22,558 nt of DNA from Escherichia phage MirsaeidiM_Esher6: the sequence record PQ585404. One strand, written 5' to 3'. Shown here one piece after another: positions 2,851 to 21,697 of the stretch. The translations under genes and the position numbers were made by a program. Every line of letters starts with the position of its first letter. Position 1 is the stretch's first letter. Under the pieces are notes generated by a model. That model was not told the origin of the DNA and ran no database searches. It saw only the letters and a program-made list of their open reading frames with translations.

Positions 2851-5800
2851 TTACTTCTGTTCAAGAGCAGAAAGTCTGGCTTCGATTCTTTCCAGTTTTC
2901 TTCTCTGATAAGCGGCTTCAGCAAAGAAAATTCCGTCAGGCCGAACACCCCACTCCTCACCCTCTTCGTGAATAACCACCTCGGTGTACACAGGTTCTTC
3001 CGTAGTAGTGACATTACCCTCCTCGTCAGTGTGTTCAATGATTTCATTGTGCGAAAATACCGTATCGGTCATCCGTGGATACTTGTCATAGCACAGAACA
3101 GCATAACGACAATTCGTACTGTTTTCATCCATCAGACCATGTGCAATGAATACATCACGAATTTGCTGAGCAATAACCCCGAAGTGAATACGAGCATCAT
3201 TGCCTTTCAGTTGAACAGCATCTAACCACTGGTACATGATGTAGTGAACGTCACCCCAGGCATCTAGGAAAGCATCATCAAAAACTACCGGCTCTGTTTT
3301 CCTCTCCCCGTTAGAAGTAACAATAGGGTTACTTCCTAGGTATGCAGTGGAGAAACGGTTGCTAGGCCCACCAAGCGCAGTGACGTTATCGTTATAAGGC
3401 TTAACATCAGCAGTCTGGAACAGGTGCTCAGCTCCGTTGTAAACTATCCGCCTTGAGTCGGTGTTATTTGCACCATAAAGCGTAATCTGTGCGCCAGAAG
3501 AAGAACTGGTACTGTCGCCTCCGCAAAATATGGTGCGCTGCCCTGCAGGGTTATCAGTCGGTATAGATTTCCCGATAAACCCATATTCACCTTCCATTAA
3601 AACTTCAGAGCGAATGTTACTACTGGTGCTGGCTCTAATGGTCACATGACCTAAACCCAAATCCCCTGTAAATTCCATTGGCGCAGGAACAGTGCGAATC
3701 CCATTCGTATCAAAAAACACGGGAACAGCTCTGTTAGGTACAGCACCATACCTGAAATCACGGGAAACATGATTGCTTGGGCCAATCTTCATTTTGTAGC
3801 AATACAAATCTGAGGGATGACCATCCGATTTGAATGGGTCCTTCGCTGAGTTATCTCCATATGTCCATGGGTTAAAATGGTCCTCTCCACCAAACATGTA
3901 GTAGATGTAATTATCCTTCACAACTACCGAACCAACACCTACACCTGAGTTAACTATTCCGCCCTGATAAATCTGGTCAGTGATGTTAACCAATTCAATA
4001 TCATCTGCATTCCAATTGTTTACATTCAAGCGTGCATAGAAGGTGCGAGGATAAGATGCCTTGTAACGATCATCTGGTGCACCTGCTTCCCATTCATTTT
4101 CTGCACGTTCTGAACCAAACATAATAAGGTCATCCCCTACTTTAGCAAAAGGTAATGTAGTATGATGAACATTATGTGGAAATCTCAGTGACTCCCAAGT
4201 CTGACCTATGTCTCTACTACGATGCAAAGAGCTACCTAGTCTATCCCCACGAGTACCACGAGTGATAAGATACAATACACCATCATAGTACTTGATGCAC
4301 GGTTCTGATGCATCTGGTTCATACTCAGCTGGTATCTGACGACGAACATAGTTAGCTGGATTGTCGAAAGCATTAGGGAAGTAGAAGAGTCCAACTTCGC
4401 GTGGGGCTACATCGCCTTGATGATAACCCATAACAAAGCCATTGTTATCAATAGTAGCAAAGCTATGCACCTCTGTTACACGAGGGATTAGACCGAGGTC
4501 TGTCTTACGCCATGGAGACTTATGGAAAGACGTACCCATGTGCCAATTCTTTCCAGCGTTATTCAAATCTGAAGTCTGCTGGTTGGGTGTAAGAACCGTG
4601 AAGTTGTCCTTATCTATTACGGTTGCAACAGTCATATCACCGGATACACCTGTTACCGCAGAATTAGAGAAGTTAACAAAATCACCCACGAATAGTCCGT
4701 GGTCTGGTACATGTATTGTTGCATATCGCTGATTTGCAGCTTTAGTGATACCACCAGTAAGATGCAGGCTACGAGACATGGGGCGATCCCACAATGCACA
4801 ATTGGTTAATTCGTTCTTGGCTAAAGTACGTGTTTCAATCATGGCAAACAGACGGTTGCGACATACACCCATGCTCATACAGTGATAGTTCACTGTAGGG
4901 TAATCTGGATGCAGATCAGTTAACCACTCTGGAGTAGACCATGTTTGACCATCATCACCAGACTTAACCCATGATACATGCAGACGACTAACACCATGAC
5001 GATCGCCACCCATGTAAGGTGCATATATCACATTATCATATACGAACGCTTTATCCTGAGGCCACGCATTGTAATAAGGGGTGTCCGTTATTTTGAATAA
5101 CTCCCCCTGAACAAATTCCTCAGAGGCATAATAAAGAGGTTGTCCGGGAATGCGCTCATAAAGGAAACGAGTGTTGATGAAGCGACTAATGTCAGGCAGG
5201 GATGTGACCTTATATGTCTTCCCATTGCCATTAATCTTTTGTCCAACCGGTATGTCGTTTAATGCGCTCGTTAACGCTGCTGTATCATCAGTGACACCAT
5301 CCCCTTTAGCACCCCAACCACGAACATCATTTTCATCAAGCCAGCGTGCTCTATGTAATTCAGGGTAGAGTATTGCCCCTTCCGGGTTTGAAATCTGACT
5401 TCTTAAAGCAGCATCACCAACACTAACCCACGCACCTAATCCAATCCCACCAGAAGTTTCAGGAGTTGAACCAGCAGGAACGTTCTTTGGAAGCGTACCA
5501 TCCCAGCGGTAATAATCACCATCCTCTTCCCATAGCAGGACCTCGCTCCATGTTGTAACGTTGTAGCCTTTCTCGAAGGAGCGACGGGTCATATAGCCAA
5601 TTAGACCAGCTTCCCTGATACTCTCAGCGATTCGGCGTGCTTCGTCCTCGCTATCCTTAGCGTTGCCAGCAGAGCTACCAGCAGCATCGGCATATTCCTT
5701 CGCTAAGTCAACCGTTTGGTCTCGACCTTCTTCTGCAATATGGATAGCCTGAAGCTCTGAATTGGTCAGGTCACTAGCTGTCAACACTGAGCCATTCCTG

Positions 5801-6045
5801 AAGTCTACCACTAAGTCAGTTCCAGTCTGACGGTGAATACGAACGATGTCGAAACCTGATTGGTCAACCAACATCTCAATCATCGTTGGATTAAGGAATC
5901 GGTAATCTCGACCAACTTCCAGTACACGGTTCAGGGTAGGGTTAGAGCTATTCACCAGCGTAACAACAACAAACGTTCTGGCTAGGTAATCGAACTCAAT
6001 CCTGTACTGAGTGTTCCCTGAAGGGAATTGTGTAATCGTGGACAT
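2851..6045 (-). CDS. gp17: Tail fiber / tailspike with endosialidase (endo-N-acetylneuraminidase) catalytic region and C-terminal intramolecular chaperone domain
   Basis: 1064 aa. The N-terminal ~150 aa (MSTITQFPSGNTQYRIEFDYLARTFVVVTLVNSSN...) is a T7 gp17-like tail-attachment domain. Length 1064 and Ser911/Lys916 (...VTS-NGERK..., by my count) match what I recall of K1F endoNF. ATG start with SD AGGAGG. Confidence 0.85.
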   Translation of the reverse strand: MSTITQFPSGNTQYRIEFDYLARTFVVVTLVNSSNPTLNRVLEVGRDYRFLNPTMIEMLVDQSGFDIVRIHRQTGTDLVVDFRNGSVLTASDLTNSELQAIHIAEEGRDQTVDLAKEYADAAGSSAGNAKDSEDEARRIAESIREAGLIGYMTRRSFEKGYNVTTWSEVLLWEEDGDYYRWDGTLPKNVPAGSTPETSGGIGLGAWVSVGDAALRSQISNPEGAILYPELHRARWLDENDVRGWGAKGDGVTDDTAALTSALNDIPVGQKINGNGKTYKVTSLPDISRFINTRFLYERIPGQPLYYASEEFVQGELFKITDTPYYNAWPQDKAFVYDNVIYAPYMGGDRHGVSRLHVSWVKSGDDGQTWSTPEWLTDLHPDYPTVNYHCMSMGVCRNRLFAMIETRTLAKNELTNCALWDRPMSRSLHLTGGITKAANQRYATIHVPDHGLFVGDFVNFSNSAVTGVSGDMTVATVIDKDNFTVLTPNQQTSDLNNAGKNWHMGTSFHKSPWRKTDLGLIPRVTEVHSFATIDNNGFVMGYHQGDVAPREVGLFYFPNAFDNPANYVRRQIPAEYEPDASEPCIKYYDGVLYLITRGTRGDRLGSSLHRSRDIGQTWESLRFPHNVHHTTLPFAKVGDDLIMFGSERAENEWEAGAPDDRYKASYPRTFYARLNVNNWNADDIELVNITDQIYQGGIVNSGVGVGSVVVKDNYIYYMFGGEDHFNPWTYGDNSAKDPFKSDGHPSDLYCYKMKIGPSNHVSRDFRYGAVPNRAVPVFFDTNGIRTVPAPMEFTGDLGLGHVTIRASTSSNIRSEVLMEGEYGFIGKSIPTDNPAGQRTIFCGGDSTSSSSGAQITLYGANNTDSRRIVYNGAEHLFQTADVKPYNDNVTALGGPSNRFSTAYLGSNPIVTSNGERKTEPVVFDDAFLDAWGDVHYIMYQWLDAVQLKGNDARIHFGVIAQQIRDVFIAHGLMDENSTNCRYAVLCYDKYPRMTDTVFSHNEIIEHTDEEGNVTTTEEPVYTEVVIHEEGEEWGVRPDGIFFAEAAYQRRKLERIEARLSALEQK

Positions 6046-6092
6046 TATGCCTCCTGTTATGAATTAAAAGGAGACCTATGGTAGCGCCTCCA

Positions 6093-6115
6093 GTTTCCTA
6101 TAGTGATAGTTTAGT
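6093..6115 (-). promoter_or_regulatory. Phage RNAP promoter upstream of gene 17 (phi17-like)
   Basis: Minus strand reads ACTAAACTATCACTATA|GGAAAC, one of five copies of the same 17-mer followed by G. Overlaps the gene 16 stop codon. Confidence 0.8.
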
Positions 6116-12873: not shown

Positions 12874-12900
12874 GCCGATAGAAATTGGTTCGCAAATTTT

Positions 12901-12975
12901 CTAATCCCCCTTCCGGCTATCAGCCAGATACTTAGCAGCCTTCTCAATCTTGCAGACTGTGCAGACCTTCGTCAT
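12901..12975 (-). CDS. Small ORF (24 aa, CxxC) translationally coupled to gene 13
   Basis: Absent from the ORF track (below its size cutoff). ATG overlaps the gene 13 TGA as ATGA, with SD AAGGAGG 5 nt upstream. Translation MTKVCTVCKIEKAAKYLADSRKGD, stop TAG. Confidence 0.4.
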   Translation of the reverse strand: MTKVCTVCKIEKAAKYLADSRKGD

Positions 12976-13459: not shown

Positions 13460-13482
13460 AGTCCCTATAGTGATAGTTAAGG
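13460..13482 (-). promoter_or_regulatory. Phage RNAP promoter upstream of gene 13 (phi13-like)
   Basis: Minus strand CCTTAACTATCACTATA|GGGACT. The initial transcribed sequence GGGACUAUAGUCCC is a perfect hairpin. Confidence 0.75.
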
Positions 13483-13506: not shown

Positions 13507-15864
13507 TTAGACGGAACGAGCTTTCTTAGCGTATGACGCCTCCCAGCCACATCCAACGATTGACACTGGGGTAGGATAGTCGGACTCTAAGGTTAGACTC
13601 GTGGTTAATGCGTTACCATTCATAGCGAAGCGATACTGCCCGTCACCAATGTTAGTAGTCCCTATGGTTTGCTGACCAAGGGTGTACCCATTAAAGGTGT
13701 TAACGAACTCTCGCTCACCGTTTCTGACAATGAGTCTCAGAGCGCCAGTGTCCTTGTAGTTGACCCAAGCCCGACGAAGCTGTAGACGACCAGTGTCTTC
13801 AGACTGAGTGCCTCTATCATCTTCAATCTTAATCAGGAACCGTGAGAACTTGTAGGACATCATATAGGACCGTCCGATGAACACTGTACGTCCTGACCAA
13901 TCGCCGTTGAGGGTAATCACAGTAGAGATACTGGTTAATTCCCCAAGGTCCAAATAAGCACCCTGACTGTCAATCAGATAGTACCGACCGGGAGACGGAG
14001 CGCTACCGCCATAAGCAGCACCAATGTCAACCGTAGTCTTATATGTGTCAGCATTAAACGAGCCAATTGGGATGACCATAGACACCTTGGAGTCAACGTG
14101 GAGTCTATACGGCTCTGACGGAAAGTCAGTTGCCTCCTTGATGAACTTAAGGTGCTCAATGTCTACCCCTCCTTGATGCTGACGAACGATGAACATGGTA
14201 GAGCCAATAGAAGCAGACGCCAGAATCTTATCATCTTTAGGGAACTCCCAGTGTGACCAAGAGGCTTGAAGCTGTACGCCGTCCTTAAACAAGAACTTGT
14301 AGATGTAGATACGGTTGTATGCACCTGTAGAGTTGACGCAGATGTAGTTCTCAGTCCCTGTACCTTGAATATCAAACACCCCGTTAGGGATGTAGGACAA
14401 TACGTGACCGGTTGTATCATCAGCATCCTTCACATCAGACACATCAGCTACAGCGAAGTATCGCTTAATGCTGGTGAATGACCCACGAGGAGCTGAGAAG
14501 AAGACTGAGCGTCCTACAGCGAACGGTCTGGCATTGTCGCCTAAGGCAAACTCTGAGCCTACATCAAGCTGGATAGACTTCGAGGTAAGGACCCCAGAGC
14601 TTGTCATCACGAACTGAACTTCATCCGACCAAAGTAGTAGCTGCTCGCTAAACGGAACGGCATACTTAAGGATTGAGATTCGAGGGTGGCTTACAGCTAC
14701 ATCAATAGGGTCATCATCACTCAGTGTCGCCACACTCTTAGGGAAGAACGCAAAGTAGCTGGCTGAACGGCTCATGATTACGTTCTCGCCTGACAAGAAC
14801 CCAAGCCTATTCCTGTAGAAGAACACATCGTTAATCGTAGCATCCACGAAGCTAGGCATAGGGTTTGTGTCATCATTCCCAGCACCACGCTTAGACCAGT
14901 CCAGAGCCTTGAACTCAAAGGAGCCATCAGTTTGTCGTACCAGAGCGTGTGGCATTGTGGTGTTATTGAACCCAGTGACAACTCCAGGCTCCACTGTCTC
15001 CTTCCACGTCTTAGTGTTGGAGTCATACATCACGTAGTATTCGTCGGCGCTACTGTTTGTCTCACCTTGAATCTTAATGATATACCCATTAGGAGCGGCA
15101 AGAGGTAGTTTAGAGATTGTCTGCACAGTATCTAGGACTGGGCTTATTAGCTGGTTAGCGTAGCCATCCTCCGTCTCTACTGAGTTAATATCGGTCCCAG
15201 AAGGAGCTGTGATTAGCAGGAATCCAGACCCAAGGTCAAACGTGAAGGTAGGGTAGGCAGTGACAAGAAGGTCTCTCAGAGCTGCACCAATGGCTTGAGC
15301 GTCCACCTTAGGCGGGTCATTCTCGGCATCGTTACCTGCTGGTAGCTTATGCGAGACCTTAACGCCACCGTTGATTCCCACCTTAAGGGTTCGACCATAC
15401 TGTCCACCACGCAGGTTAATTAAAGCTCGTGCTTTGCGGTTATAACCAGAGTGTGACTTCTCGCTTCCACCTTTGACGACAACCTTACGGTTAACGACGA
15501 ACGTATAGTCTGCCACGGTAACGACACGGATGTCATCTCGTGGGTTTGAGGACTTAACGTAGTCTACCTCACCTGACACTGAGTATTGGTTACCACTCAA
15601 GTCAACTACCTGAATGTCGGACCCATTGAACACGATGTAATACTGCTCATGCTCGTCACGGTTAATCAGGTGGAACTTAGGGTTGCTCCCAACGTCGATG
15701 TTAAGACGTCGCTTGAAGACTGTAGGTGGACGCTTCTGGAGTCCATCACTCTCGGATGACCAGCAGTTAACCTGTGCCTCTCCTTGGTCTGAGAACCTCA
15801 GGATGTCAGGCTGTTGGCTAATGCCACCCTTAAGATTTTTTATGCTTTGCGTAATAAGAGGCAT
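13507..15864 (-). CDS. gp12: Tail tubular protein B (T7 gp12-like)
   Basis: 785 aa (T7 gp12 is 794 aa) at the syntenic position after gene 11. ATG with SD GGGAGGG; start overlaps the gene 11 stop. Confidence 0.85.
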   Translation of the reverse strand: MPLITQSIKNLKGGISQQPDILRFSDQGEAQVNCWSSESDGLQKRPPTVFKRRLNIDVGSNPKFHLINRDEHEQYYIVFNGSDIQVVDLSGNQYSVSGEVDYVKSSNPRDDIRVVTVADYTFVVNRKVVVKGGSEKSHSGYNRKARALINLRGGQYGRTLKVGINGGVKVSHKLPAGNDAENDPPKVDAQAIGAALRDLLVTAYPTFTFDLGSGFLLITAPSGTDINSVETEDGYANQLISPVLDTVQTISKLPLAAPNGYIIKIQGETNSSADEYYVMYDSNTKTWKETVEPGVVTGFNNTTMPHALVRQTDGSFEFKALDWSKRGAGNDDTNPMPSFVDATINDVFFYRNRLGFLSGENVIMSRSASYFAFFPKSVATLSDDDPIDVAVSHPRISILKYAVPFSEQLLLWSDEVQFVMTSSGVLTSKSIQLDVGSEFALGDNARPFAVGRSVFFSAPRGSFTSIKRYFAVADVSDVKDADDTTGHVLSYIPNGVFDIQGTGTENYICVNSTGAYNRIYIYKFLFKDGVQLQASWSHWEFPKDDKILASASIGSTMFIVRQHQGGVDIEHLKFIKEATDFPSEPYRLHVDSKVSMVIPIGSFNADTYKTTVDIGAAYGGSAPSPGRYYLIDSQGAYLDLGELTSISTVITLNGDWSGRTVFIGRSYMMSYKFSRFLIKIEDDRGTQSEDTGRLQLRRAWVNYKDTGALRLIVRNGEREFVNTFNGYTLGQQTIGTTNIGDGQYRFAMNGNALTTSLTLESDYPTPVSIVGCGWEASYAKKARSV

Positions 15865-16430
15865 TAGTCCCTCCCGATGTCAGACATCATGTTGTAGCGA
15901 CCAGTGTCCATCTCATACTCCATAACCTGCTGATAGAGTTCTGCTTCCTGCTCACGAAGGTATAGCTCTGACTCCGGGCTACCGAAGAACTTAGCGTTGA
16001 ACTCACGGCTAGCTTTAGTGACGATGTAGTCCCTGAAGACCACAGGCATCTCGGAGAATGGCTTCATCTCCACAAGCTCTACCGTGATAGGGTCGGTGAA
16101 AGTGGTTGACTGAGTGGACAGGTCGTACAGGTATCCACCCATGTTGCTGTAGTAGCTGGTGGCCCCAGCGGTCATTACACGAAGGTATGACGGCAAGAAT
16201 CGAATCCTATTGTCTTGGACATCAGGTGTCAGGACAGCAGCTTCATTGATGTTAAAGTTCCAGCCTTTAGCTTGGACCTGACGATTAACACGATGCAGGA
16301 TACGTTGAGCGTTCGAGACGTCAGCGTTACCTTCGTCAAGCTGTAGGACTGCCGGTTCACCGATAGCAGCTAACATATCGTTGATGGCGTCTAAGTCATC
16401 GTTAGCATTCAGTGGAATGTATTGAGCCAT
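15864..16430 (-). CDS. gp11: Tail tubular protein A (T7 gp11-like)
   Basis: 188 aa; ...AINDMLAAIGEP...AQRILHRVNRQVQAKGWNFN...VTKASREFNAKFFGSPE... matches T7 gp11 motifs. ATG with SD AAGGAG. Confidence 0.88.
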   Translation of the reverse strand: MAQYIPLNANDDLDAINDMLAAIGEPAVLQLDEGNADVSNAQRILHRVNRQVQAKGWNFNINEAAVLTPDVQDNRIRFLPSYLRVMTAGATSYYSNMGGYLYDLSTQSTTFTDPITVELVEMKPFSEMPVVFRDYIVTKASREFNAKFFGSPESELYLREQEAELYQQVMEYEMDTGRYNMMSDIGRD

Positions 16431-16441
16431 AGGTTTACTCC

Positions 16442-16531
16442 TTAACGGTCATAGGCGCTAGACGGTGAGCTGGACAGCAGGTACGCCCAGAATAAGACGA
16501 ATAGTGCTAACCCTGTGTAAATAAGGACCAT
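16442..16531 (-). CDS. Small hydrophobic ORF (29 aa) between the T-phi-like terminator and gene 11
   Basis: Absent from the ORF track. Translation MVLIYTGLALFVLFWAYLLSSSPSSAYDR. SD AAGGAGGG about 4 nt upstream of ATG. Its TAA stop lies inside the gene 11 SD (cgTTAAGGAGtaaacctATG). Confidence 0.4.
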   Translation of the reverse strand: MVLIYTGLALFVLFWAYLLSSSPSSAYDR

Positions 16532-16544
16532 AGTCCCTCCTTAA

Positions 16545-16588: not shown

Positions 16589-17763
16589 TTAGTTGTTGGA
16601 CTCAGCCAGTTTAGCGGCCCTGTTCGCAGCACGAGTACGCGCAGCTTTCTGTTGAGGAGTTAGAGTCTCCTCTTCAGGTGCAGCCGCTACTGTAGCGACG
16701 TTAGGTTGGCTAAAGGTGCTTACGCCGCTGGGCTGAAAACCAGTGCGCCAGCCGCTTCAGGACGCAGACCACCATGACCCATAGCGTATTTACCAACAAT
16801 CAGGTCACCCTGAGCATCTACGTCACGGTCACGTTCCAGCGCCAAGTCACGCAGCTTCACAGTGCCTACAGCAGAACGGTGAGAGAACAGGCCCACAACG
16901 TTGTCCAGAGCAACTTTAACATCACCAGCAGCAGTAGCTGGGAAGGCGTGCTTCTGACCAGTCGCAATAGTGATACCATCGGCACCACGAGTTTCACCAG
17001 CACCACCCTGAGTCAAGTGTGGAACTTCAACAACCACGAAGCCCATTACGTTACGGATGTTACCAGTCTCTGGGTCAATCAGCGCAGCATAGTTAGCAGC
17101 GTTCGGCATCAGAGCCGCGAGGATTGCAGAGTAGTTGTCAGGCGTGGTGTAGAAGTAACGGTCGCCAGCAGGAACGTAGTTGGAGGTCAGCTTCGCACGA
17201 GCAATGGTCAATTGACCAATGATTGCTTCACCCAGTTTAGCCGGGGTGTTGAGGTCAGCTTTCTTACCAACTCCCAGTACGGACGCAGTGCCCAGACCAG
17301 CGATGTTCTCGTTGGATGCATCCGGGAGGTTACACAGGATCGCCATTTCAGCCAGCACCGCACCATCAGCAGCGATAGCCAGAGCTTCGCCCAACTGGTT
17401 GGAATACTCACCAGCCACGTCGTAGTGGTTCATCGCGTCTTCAATGTCGAAAATCATCACATCGGCAGTCAGCAGACCATCAATGGTAATCACTTTCTCG
17501 GTATGCTTGATACCTTTACGCTTATCGGACAGTCGCTCACCAGGAGCCAGATACACACCAGAGGTGCGACCCATGACCGGGAACTGAGCAGACTTACCGT
17601 TCTGAATGGTACGGACAATATGCTTGTCAGCAGTTACAGAGCGGCGAGTGAATGCGGTCAGGACTTCACCAGCAAATACCTTCAGGAACAACGCTAGAGC
17701 GTCGGAACTGGATTTGCCTTTACCTTGGTCTGTACCAATTTTCTGACCCGGAACGTTTGCCAT
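16589..17763 (-). CDS. gp10B: Minor capsid protein 10B, predicted product of a -1 ribosomal frameshift near the end of 10A
   Basis: Slippery G GTT TTC (plus-strand 16735..16741, complement) lies 4 codons before the 10A stop. The -1 frame stays open for 49 codons (GFQPSGVSTFSQPNVATVAAAPEEETLTPQQKAARTRAANRAAKLAESNN) and stops at TAA 16589..16591, immediately before the terminator hairpin. Confidence 0.6.
16720..17763 (-). CDS. gp10A: Major capsid protein 10A (T7 gp10A-like)
   Basis: 347 aa with extensive identity to T7 gp10A (e.g. LALFLKVF.GEVLTAF, KHTEKVITIDGLLTADV, AILAALMPNAANYAALIDPE, RNVMGF.VVEVPHLT.GGAG, KYAMGHGGLRPEAAG). ATG with SD. Confidence 0.95.
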   Translation of the reverse strand: MANVPGQKIGTDQGKGKSSSDALALFLKVFAGEVLTAFTRRSVTADKHIVRTIQNGKSAQFPVMGRTSGVYLAPGERLSDKRKGIKHTEKVITIDGLLTADVMIFDIEDAMNHYDVAGEYSNQLGEALAIAADGAVLAEMAILCNLPDASNENIAGLGTASVLGVGKKADLNTPAKLGEAIIGQLTIARAKLTSNYVPAGDRYFYTTPDNYSAILAALMPNAANYAALIDPETGNIRNVMGFVVVEVPHLTQGGAGETRGADGITIATGQKHAFPATAAGDVKVALDNVVGLFSHRSAVGTVKLRDLALERDRDVDAQGDLIVGKYAMGHGGLRPEAAGALVFSPAA

Positions 17764-17865: not shown

Positions 17866-17888
17866 TCTCCCTATAGTGATAGTTTAGT
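17866..17888 (-). promoter_or_regulatory. Phage RNAP promoter upstream of gene 10 (phi10-like)
   Basis: Minus strand ACTAAACTATCACTATA|GGGAGA, followed by a ~100 nt leader and SD AGGAG before the capsid ATG. Confidence 0.85.
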
Positions 17889-18853: not shown

Positions 18854-18876
18854 TGTTCCTATAGTGATAGTTTAGG
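18854..18876 (-). promoter_or_regulatory. Phage RNAP promoter upstream of gene 9 (phi9-like)
   Basis: Minus strand CCTAAACTATCACTATA|GGAACA. Overlaps the gene 8 stop. Confidence 0.78.
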
Positions 18877-21674: not shown

Positions 21675-21697
21675 AGTCCCTATAGTGATAGTTTAGT
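21675..21697 (-). promoter_or_regulatory. Phage RNAP promoter upstream of gene 6.5 (phi6.5-like)
   Basis: Minus strand ACTAAACTATCACTATA|GGGACT. Confidence 0.82.

Follow-up and report, generated by a model that had tools for sequence, protein, structure and literature searches.

The open reading frame at 2851..6045 (minus strand) of the phage DNA analysed here, a stretch of 22,558 nucleotides referred to below as the window, is almost certainly gene 17 of a K1F-like Kayfunavirus and encodes an endosialidase tailspike, an endoNF allele that by homology would be both self-cleaving and K1-capsule-digesting. Relative to the 1064-residue gp17 of phage K1F (endoNF), its product carries 30 substitutions and no indels (97.2% amino acid identity), and the two genes share 97.3% nucleotide identity across all 3195 nt; since this identity holds along the entire gene, the likeness is far beyond chance. 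A preliminary description of this DNA had called the tailspike a known type of system, which the 97% identity to the well-studied K1F protein bears out. Self-cleavage, enzyme activity and K1 host specificity are predicted for this allele from its sequence, and for K1 specificity the combination of 97% identity to endoNF with the K1 hosts of near-identical phages argues strongly. The hosts recorded for those phages are K1 strains (O18ac:K1:H7, UTI89, DSM 30083, ‘K1 LU_100’ and IMT5155). A few records with near-identical genes give non-K1 hosts (K-12 MG1655 and Acinetobacter), and these we take to be propagation or annotation quirks.

A K1F-type endosialidase tailspike is already known and its presence here is ordinary. 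Few phage depolymerases are as well characterised as endoNF, for which crystal structures, a worked-out mechanism of chaperone self-cleavage and a complete deep mutational scan are available, and the present gene adds little to that body of work. Its value is for annotation, as a K1F-like phage with this spike should infect K1-encapsulated Escherichia coli, which include neonatal meningitis and urinary tract infection strains.

Gene 17 and its genomic setting

The reading frame is a single ORF of 1064 codons plus a stop codon (2851-2853) that begins with ATG on the minus strand. Its coordinates and the product length of 1064 aa had been given correctly before, with the strand left unstated; the minus-strand translation is clean. 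Reading 2851-6045 on the plus strand was also considered and was rejected, being riddled with stops. A Shine-Dalgarno sequence, AGGAGG, was read off the upstream sequence at 6050..6055 (minus strand), separated from the ATG by 4 nt. Further upstream, a motif match identified a phage-RNA-polymerase promoter-like site (TAAACTATCACTATAGGAAAC, 6093..6113, minus strand) that overlaps the stop codon of gene 16. This motif was matched five times, every time on the minus strand, where 0.02 matches were expected by chance, and its positions correspond to those of the class III promoters of T7. Scans for sigma-70 promoters and intrinsic terminators around gene 17 stayed at or below chance level, and an Rfam scan of the 22.6-kb window returned no family at gathering score. 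When the 112 nt past the end of gene 17 were folded, the signal was only weak (z = −1.97), and no terminator is claimed. The holin gene 17.5 follows 109 nt after gene 17, with no second spike gene at that place. K1F gene 17 likewise lies between genes 16 and 17.5, although the downstream intergenic region is 24 nt shorter here.

The likeness to K1F extends well beyond the spike. Its alignment to K1F genes 6-19 is collinear, covers 99% of the window and shows 95.6% identity. Judged by this alignment, the whole window represents genes 6-19 of a K1F-like Kayfunavirus (Studiervirinae) in reverse complement, a membership drawn from the window and applying to genus rather than species. Both proteins on which the gp17 anchor is expected to dock, the adaptor gp11 and the nozzle gp12, are encoded in the window: gene 11 (tail tube/adaptor) at 15864-16430 (minus strand; PF17212, E 3.6e-46) and gene 12 at 13507-15864 (minus strand; PF25675, 1096 bits), each also supported by synteny with K1F. 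The tail-fibre gene of phage MirsaeidiM_Esher7 has 99.3% DNA identity to the gene 17 studied here, and an exact-sequence look-up of the 1064-aa protein in a collection of 15 billion sequences found no match.

Attachment modules and endosialidase body

The product starts with a T7 gp17-type tail anchor (residues 1-130; 5656..6045, minus strand), predicted to attach to the gp11/gp12 tail. Pfam places Phage_T7_tail (PF03906) at residues 10-115 with 58 bits (cutoff 25.2), and identity to T7 gp17 is 40% over residues 6-113. PDB structures of the T7 fibre N-terminus (7boz, 8dsp, 8e4g) match residues 6-116 (E 1e-15 to 1e-18), a further alignment of 7boz covers residues 12-122 (E 1e-15), and anchors of the KP32 and other types match residues 1-130. 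No match to T7 was found past about residue 130, and the remainder of T7 gp17, with its fibre shaft and tip, is unrelated. The T7-like N-terminal attachment domain proposed in the preliminary description is thus present but is not a single module, as the anchor is followed by a neck domain, Tail_spike_N (PF18668, E 3.7e-19; residues 156-211; 5413..5580, minus strand), which lies between anchor and enzyme and also matches the N-terminal domains of CBA120 tailspikes (4oj5, 5w6f, 5w6h).

These PF18668 and CBA120/G7C-type matches could in principle mark a site where a second receptor-binding protein branches off, giving two spikes as in KP32 or K1-5, and related podoviruses do dock a second spike on a domain just past the anchor (PMC13352976). 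However, K1F has been described as carrying one receptor-binding protein by its anchor only, and the branching domain of those podoviruses is a different, T4 gp10-like one (PMC13352976). With the holin gene, and no spike gene, following gene 17, a branching role for the neck is extremely improbable and was rejected in favour of the single K1F-type spike.

The body of that spike, between about residues 250 and 910, had been read as a large non-T7 endosialidase, and the structural and profile matches agree. Against the endoNF crystal structures (1v0e, 3gvl), residues 246-910 score about 1525 bits, and together with 3gw6 these PDB chains span residues 245-1064. Four Pfam domains of endosialidases, the endo-N-acetylneuraminidases of family GH58, were found, with E values from 1.7e-220 to 7e-37. 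An N-terminal extension (residues 246-312; 5110..5310, minus strand; PF12218, E 7e-37), starting where the crystallised endoNF fragment (1v0e) begins, leads into the six-bladed beta-propeller catalytic domain (residues 313-754; 3784..5109, minus strand), for which PF12217 scores 731.8 bits (E 1.7e-220) and is covered from profile position 1 to 366 of 367. Inserted in the propeller is a beta-barrel polysialic-acid-binding domain (residues 424-506; 4528..4776, minus strand; PF12195, E 6e-48). The propeller is followed by a triple-beta-helix stalk that ends at Thr910 (residues 757-910; 3316..3777, minus strand; PF12219, E 2.7e-77). All six Pfam domains expected of such a protein scored above their cutoffs. 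The earlier label of tail fibre was right as to the gene, gp17, but the product is properly termed a tailspike.

Conservation extends to individual residues. The beta-barrel and stalk of such enzymes carry additional polysialic-acid binding sites, and R812 and Y821 are kept, as are the presumed stalk-site residues R837, S848 and Q853. The catalytic residues, which the preliminary description had singled out for confirmation, are likewise intact: H350 (codon 4996-4998), R549 (4399-4401), E581 (4303-4305), R596 (4258-4260) and R647 (4105-4107), all on the minus strand, are invariant across 60-65 aligned homologues, and roles in catalysis or sialic-acid coordination have been described for them (PMC13564897). 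In all, the 23 functionally named residues, including those that contact or cleave polysialic acid, are unchanged from K1F.

Chaperone domain and predicted self-cleavage site

The C-terminal part of the protein (residues 911-1064; 2854..3315, minus strand) is an intramolecular chaperone domain of the Peptidase_S74 type and is predicted to be released by self-cleavage. It is identical to the K1F gp17 C-terminal domain at 153 of 154 residues; PDB 3gw6 matches residues 790-1064, the GA-1 chaperone domain (CIMCD, 3gud) matches 914-1014, and PF13884 scores 36.2 bits (cutoff 22) over residues 916-971. A scripted count placed serine at 911 (codon 3313-3315) and lysine at 916 (codon 3298-3300, both minus strand) in the context NPIVT-S-NGER-K, in agreement with the positions reported earlier for the Ser/Lys dyad. 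The profile supports the same placement, as its position 6 aligns to K916 and S911 is therefore position 1. The earlier assignment of 911-1064 to the S74 chaperone, with this dyad at its start, accordingly holds. In the K1F GenBank record the mature gp17* comprises residues 2-910 and the chaperone domain 911-1064, with the cut between Thr910 and Ser911. The Thr-Ser-x4-Lys motif (T910, S911, K916) was invariant in nine of nine divergent chaperone-bearing proteins, including that of Bacillus phage GA-1, and two stalk residues encoded on the minus strand, D886 (codon 3388-3390) and R897 (codon 3355-3357), were present in eight of the nine. The parts assigned to this pair, with R897 as the upstream oxyanion or folding-sensor arginine, are carried over from the mechanism of T5 pb1 / K1F. 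Chaperone-domain self-cleavage uses a Ser/Lys dyad and an oxyanion arginine (PMC3742443), and residues of the D886/R897 type help cleavage in T5 pb1 and K1F (PMC4690869).

By homology, the 1064-aa precursor would trimerise with nucleation by the chaperone domain, which would serve as the template on which the triple-beta-helix stalk folds. Correct folding of the stalk would allow Arg897 of a neighbouring chain, with Asp886, to position the Thr910 carbonyl, and Ser911, activated by Lys916, would attack the Thr910-Ser911 bond and thereby free the chaperone. As a mature trimer of residues 2-910, the spike would dock on the gp11/gp12 tail by its T7-type anchor and bind alpha-2,8-polysialic acid at the beta-barrel and stalk sites, and digestion of the polymer would let the phage bore its way through the K1 capsule.

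Related spikes and the substitutions relative to K1F

The closest known system is K1F gp17 itself (endoNF; AM084414 CAJ29390; 1V0E, 3GVL, 3GW6), with the same length, domain order, T910/S911 site and catalytic and binding residues. Four other endosialidase groups share the propeller, barrel, stalk and S74 body with all key residues conserved: K1E/K1-5 (Vectrevirus gp47; 71% identity), the P22-like CUS-3 (64%), the phi92-like ESCO5/phAPEC8 (54%) and the K1G/K1H siphoviruses (51%). None of these carries the T7-type anchor; the K1E protein gp47 begins close to its catalytic body, and in proteins of the CUS-3 type a P22 head-binding domain (PF09008) takes the place of the anchor. One and the same enzyme module is thus joined to different attachment modules. 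The reverse combination is found in a Studiervirinae spike (9vvr_A), whose anchor is about 98% identical over residues 1-245 but whose 843-aa body is different, and the KP32 gp37 anchor is 47% identical over residues 1-130. More distantly, the GA-1 and phi29 neck appendages, T5 pb1 and eukaryotic MYRF share the T-S-x4-K motif, the upstream Arg and Asp and a C-terminal coiled-coil helix (PMC4690869, PMC3742443); sequence identity is low (18-32%), and their receptor-binding or transcription-factor bodies are unrelated.

The 30 substitutions that separate the present protein from K1F are not evenly spread. Residues 500-599 contain seven of them and residues 800-899 eight, blocks that also hold 27 and 19 of the nucleotide differences, and the clusters lie at 558-573, in a peripheral propeller loop, and at 838-878, in the stalk, where the patch 838-850 flanks the polysialic-acid binding site. 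Among the changes in these patches are D558N, N561D, S562N and S564A in the loop and I838T, E844D, G845S, T849S and T850S in the stalk. Such clustering may suggest an endoNF-like spike with an altered fine specificity or host range (e.g., favouring O-acetylated K1 capsule or particular O-antigen backgrounds) through the 558-573 patch, W685L and stalk residues 838-850. Deep mutational scanning of K1F gp17 found the N565 loop, the position beside V686 and the stalk to be adaptive or host-discriminating (PMC13564897). Against this, every residue named for polysialic-acid contact or cleavage is unchanged, the majority of the variant residues can be found in further K1 phages (e.g., Pipis, Esher7 and K1E), and single mutations never re-targeted the K1F spike to other capsule types (PMC13564897). 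We consider a shifted specificity unlikely. It is similarly doubtful that the patches 558-573 and 838-850, together with W685L, represent adaptive tuning to variant K1 surfaces (O-acetylation, O-antigen context), perhaps by short-tract recombination between endosialidase genes; if they did, they would be a natural counterpart of the hotspots of the deep mutational scan. An origin of the divergent patch (residues 520-600) in a K1E-type gene has equivocal support: its identity is 90.5% with K1F and 90.9% with K1E, and megablast with the 93-nt core of the patch listed K1E-type genes and not K1F.

The sole oddity of this otherwise standard endoNF allele is W685L, which is private to it. Codon 685 (3991..3993, minus strand) reads TTG (Leu), a single-base change from the TGG (Trp) of K1F and relatives. 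Of 58 aligned cluster representatives, 51 have tryptophan here, as does every homologue of at least 50% identity, and among viral and metagenome contigs the Trp685 version was found in four viral contigs while the Leu685 version had no exact match. This pattern could point to a deleterious change or a sequencing error. However, residue 685 is V, T or A in distant endosialidases and hence not a catalytic one, the reading frame is uninterrupted, and the adjoining V686 lies in a surface-exposed, mutation-tolerant loop (PMC13564897). An impaired or miscalled gene is thus quite improbable, and the endoNF-type tailspike reported here provides one further natural variant, with its unusual W685L, for comparison with mutational-scan data.

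The gp17 precursor and its predicted cleavage site

Gene 17 is a single 1064-codon open reading frame on the minus strand (2851-6045), with an ATG start preceded 4 nt upstream by an AGGAGG Shine-Dalgarno sequence and a clean translation ending in a single stop at 2851-2853. A plus-strand reading of the same interval was riddled with stops and was rejected. All Pfam domains of the product exceeded their curated cutoffs: Phage_T7_tail (residues 10-115, 58 bits), Tail_spike_N (PF18668, 156-211, E 3.7e-19), End_N_terminal (246-312), End_beta_propel (313-754, E 1.7e-220) with End_beta_barrel inserted in the propeller (424-506), End_tail_spike (757-910) and Peptidase_S74 (916-971, 36.2 bits, cutoff 22). 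This layout is borne out by solved structures: the T7 fibre N-terminus (7boz, 8dsp, 8e4g) matches residues 6-116, the endoNF chains 1v0e and 3gvl match 245/246-910, the stalk and chaperone structure 3gw6 matches 790-1064 and the GA-1 chaperone (3gud) matches 914-1014. The GenBank annotation of K1F places mature gp17* at residues 2-910 and an 'intramolecular triple-beta-helix chaperone domain' at 911-1064; in this C-terminal domain (CTD), 153 of 154 residues are identical between the window and K1F.

A self-cleaving chaperone had been proposed from a Ser/Lys pair, and counting by script placed Ser 911 and Lys 916 in NPIVT-S-NGER-K exactly as first numbered. The dyad and an oxyanion-stabilising arginine have been described (PMC3742443), and the Asp-x10-Arg-x12-Thr-Ser-x4-Lys spacing of the cleavage mechanism transposed from K1F to T5 pb1 (PMC4690869) corresponds to D886, R897, T910, S911 and K916, all unchanged in the window. 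In an alignment of nine divergent chaperone-bearing proteins (window, K1F, K1E, CUS-3, ESCO5, K1G, GA-1, fFiEco02 and KpnM-20), the cleavage-site Thr, Ser and Lys were invariant in 9/9, and the Arg and Asp were present in 8/9. Also unchanged were H350, R549, E581, R596 and R647, as well as Q330, D331, H527, S528, K585, N699, R812, Y821, R866 and D994; roles for most of the named residues come from a 2026 deep mutational scan of K1F gp17 (PMC13564897). The five catalytic residues were invariant wherever aligned among 66 cluster representatives from a search of 5.8 billion proteins. The observation first made for this element is confirmed and its interpretation supported: it is an already known, textbook K1F-type endosialidase tailspike with a self-cleaving chaperone, as the preliminary description had held.

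By homology, the precursor would trimerise via the CTD, which would template the triple-beta-helix stalk. Correct folding would bring D886 and, from the neighbouring chain, R897 to the T910 carbonyl, and S911, activated by K916, would then cut the T910-S911 bond. The released spike would dock to gp11/gp12 by its anchor and depolymerise alpha-2,8-polysialic acid in the propeller, with extra binding sites predicted on the barrel and stalk.

Modular composition of gp17

The suggestion that gp17 fuses a T7 adaptor to an endosialidase holds in the evolutionary sense, since both parts recur separately, but it overlooked a helical linker and the small PF18668 domain that separate anchor from enzyme. 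Matches to the N-terminal 245 residues occur in 2417 phage records; identity to this region is 40% in T7 (over 6-113), 47% in KP32 (1-130) and 92% in Salmonella phage ST20 (1-211), and the solved 843-aa tailspike 9vvr_A is ~98% identical over 1-245 before continuing into an unrelated body. The body (246-1064), in turn, is found on other backbones, including SP6-like K1E (71% identity, without the T7 anchor), P22-like CUS-3 (64%, attached to the P22 head-binding domain PF09008), phi92-like myoviruses (54%) and the K1G/K1H siphoviruses (51%). The chaperone domain by itself recurs on unrelated spikes, as far as Bacillus phage GA-1. Modularity of K1-phage spikes is already well described and has been exploited in engineering (PMC13352976).

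The PF18668 domain is common to CBA120-type tailspikes, yet little suggests that in gp17 it serves as a platform on which a second spike branches off, which we consider highly improbable. At the junction motif WGAKGDGVTDDTAAL (residues 241-263; 5257-5325, minus), a weak, sub-threshold match to PF12708, a pectate-lyase-like depolymerase N-terminus, was observed (E 0.0018). Similarity to 9vvr_A stops at this same junction, its match reaching residue 264, and the motif may be a shared linker easing module swapping.

Divergence from K1F and capsule specificity

Read in reverse orientation, the entire 22.6-kb window is collinear with K1F genes 6-19, with 99% of the window aligning at 95.6% identity, and Pfam identified the neighbours of gene 17 as portal (gene 8), scaffold (gene 9), capsid (gene 10A), tail tube (gene 11), nozzle (gene 12), gp13, gp14 and Rz. 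Megablast of gene 17 against 50,697 phage records found 30 with a coverage of 80% or more; Escherichia phage MirsaeidiM_Esher7 was the top match (99.3%), and the K1F reference records matched at 97.3% over all 3195 nt. The protein differs from K1F gp17 by 30 substitutions and no indels (97.2% identity). Its exact sequence was absent from a collection of 15 billion proteins, so a known protein is represented here by a new allele. Specificity for the K1 capsule, proposed at first reading, is supported by the hosts on record for near-identical phages, which are K1 strains. Near-identical endosialidase genes also occur in PV615262 and MZ311862, with Acinetobacter baumannii and E. coli K-12 MG1655 as stated hosts; because neither is expected to bear a K1 capsule, these labels are probably wrong or name propagation strains.

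The substitutions are clustered, with 7 in residues 500-599 and 8 in 800-899 (27 and 19 nucleotide changes, respectively). They include D558N, N561D, S562N, S564A and S573A around N565, and I838T, E844D, G845S, T849S and T850S in the stalk, and coincide with the adaptive regions of the K1F scan, namely peripheral loops at N565 and V686 and the stalk as a 'tuning knob' (PMC13564897). Despite this coincidence, little argues for an altered fine specificity of the window spike, which seems unlikely; the variant states are mostly common to phage Pipis and Esher7, and several also occur in K1E. Two patches on the minus strand, 4306-4398 (codons 550-580) and 3406-3543 (codons 835-880), are ~87-88% identical to K1F, well below the 97% of the gene overall, but ~99% to Esher7 and 95-99% to Pipis. 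For patch 4306-4398, K1E-type (Vectrevirus) endosialidase genes are at least as close as K1F, a hint that endosialidase alleles may recombine over short tracts.

The sole private substitution is W685L (3991-3993, minus; TGG in K1F, TTG in the window). Of the 58 aligned representatives, 51 have Trp at this position, as do all homologues with at least 50% identity; Val, Thr or Ala replaces it only in distant enzymes of the Mannheimia type and the like. None of the phage records examined has the Leu version, and a 21-mer carrying its codon is absent from both the viral and the metagenome contig collections; the Trp version of the 21-mer is present in four viral contigs. W685L could reflect genuine private variation, a deleterious mutation or a miscalled base. 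Little points to an allele impaired through this change, which we regard as very unlikely.

Promoter-like sites, gene 10 and insertions

A phage-RNA-polymerase promoter-like motif (TAAACTATCACTATAGG...) occurs five times on the minus strand, against 0.02 copies expected by chance: ahead of gene 17 (6093-6110, overlapping the gene 16 stop codon), gene 13 (13460-13477), gene 10 (17866-17883), gene 9 (18854-18871) and gene 6.5 (21675-21692). We take these positions to match those of the T7 class III promoters phi17, phi13, phi10, phi9 and phi6.5.

At the 3' end of gene 10 (~16590-16745, minus), a T7-like slippery heptamer, GGTTTTC, lies shortly upstream of the gene 10A stop, and the -1 frame stays open for ~52 more codons (ending in FQPSGVSTFSQPNVATVAAAPEEETLTPQQKAARTRAANRAAKLAESNN and a stop) before a T-phi-like hairpin (AAACCCCTTGGGTGCCTTCGGGTGCTTGAGGGGTTTTTTG). 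Heptamer and open frame together suggest a frameshifted 10B capsid protein, which is without annotation in the K1F record.

Compared with K1F, the window has a 100-nt insertion (16441-16540, minus) after the gene 10 terminator and before gene 11, with a strong Shine-Dalgarno sequence and a 29-codon hydrophobic open reading frame (MVLIYTGLALFVLFWAYLLSSSPSSAYDR). Copies with 90-100% identity occur in 47 phage records, chiefly of Kayfunavirus and other Escherichia phages, and most of them lack annotation. A second insertion relative to K1F, of 75 nt (12898-12972, minus), falls at the gene 13/gene 14 junction exactly on the gene 14 start, replacing its ribosome-binding site and ATG, and encodes a 24-aa CxxC peptide (MTKVCTVCKIEKAAKYLADSRKGD, then a stop); from the first remaining ATG, gene 14 encodes 188 aa rather than 195. 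Its 3' part matches the final stretch of the 'recombination endonuclease VII' genes that phages Penshu1 and Ro45lw carry at this site, and the insertion, identical in Esher7, has the appearance of a homing-endonuclease remnant of the endonuclease VII type left by an internal deletion.
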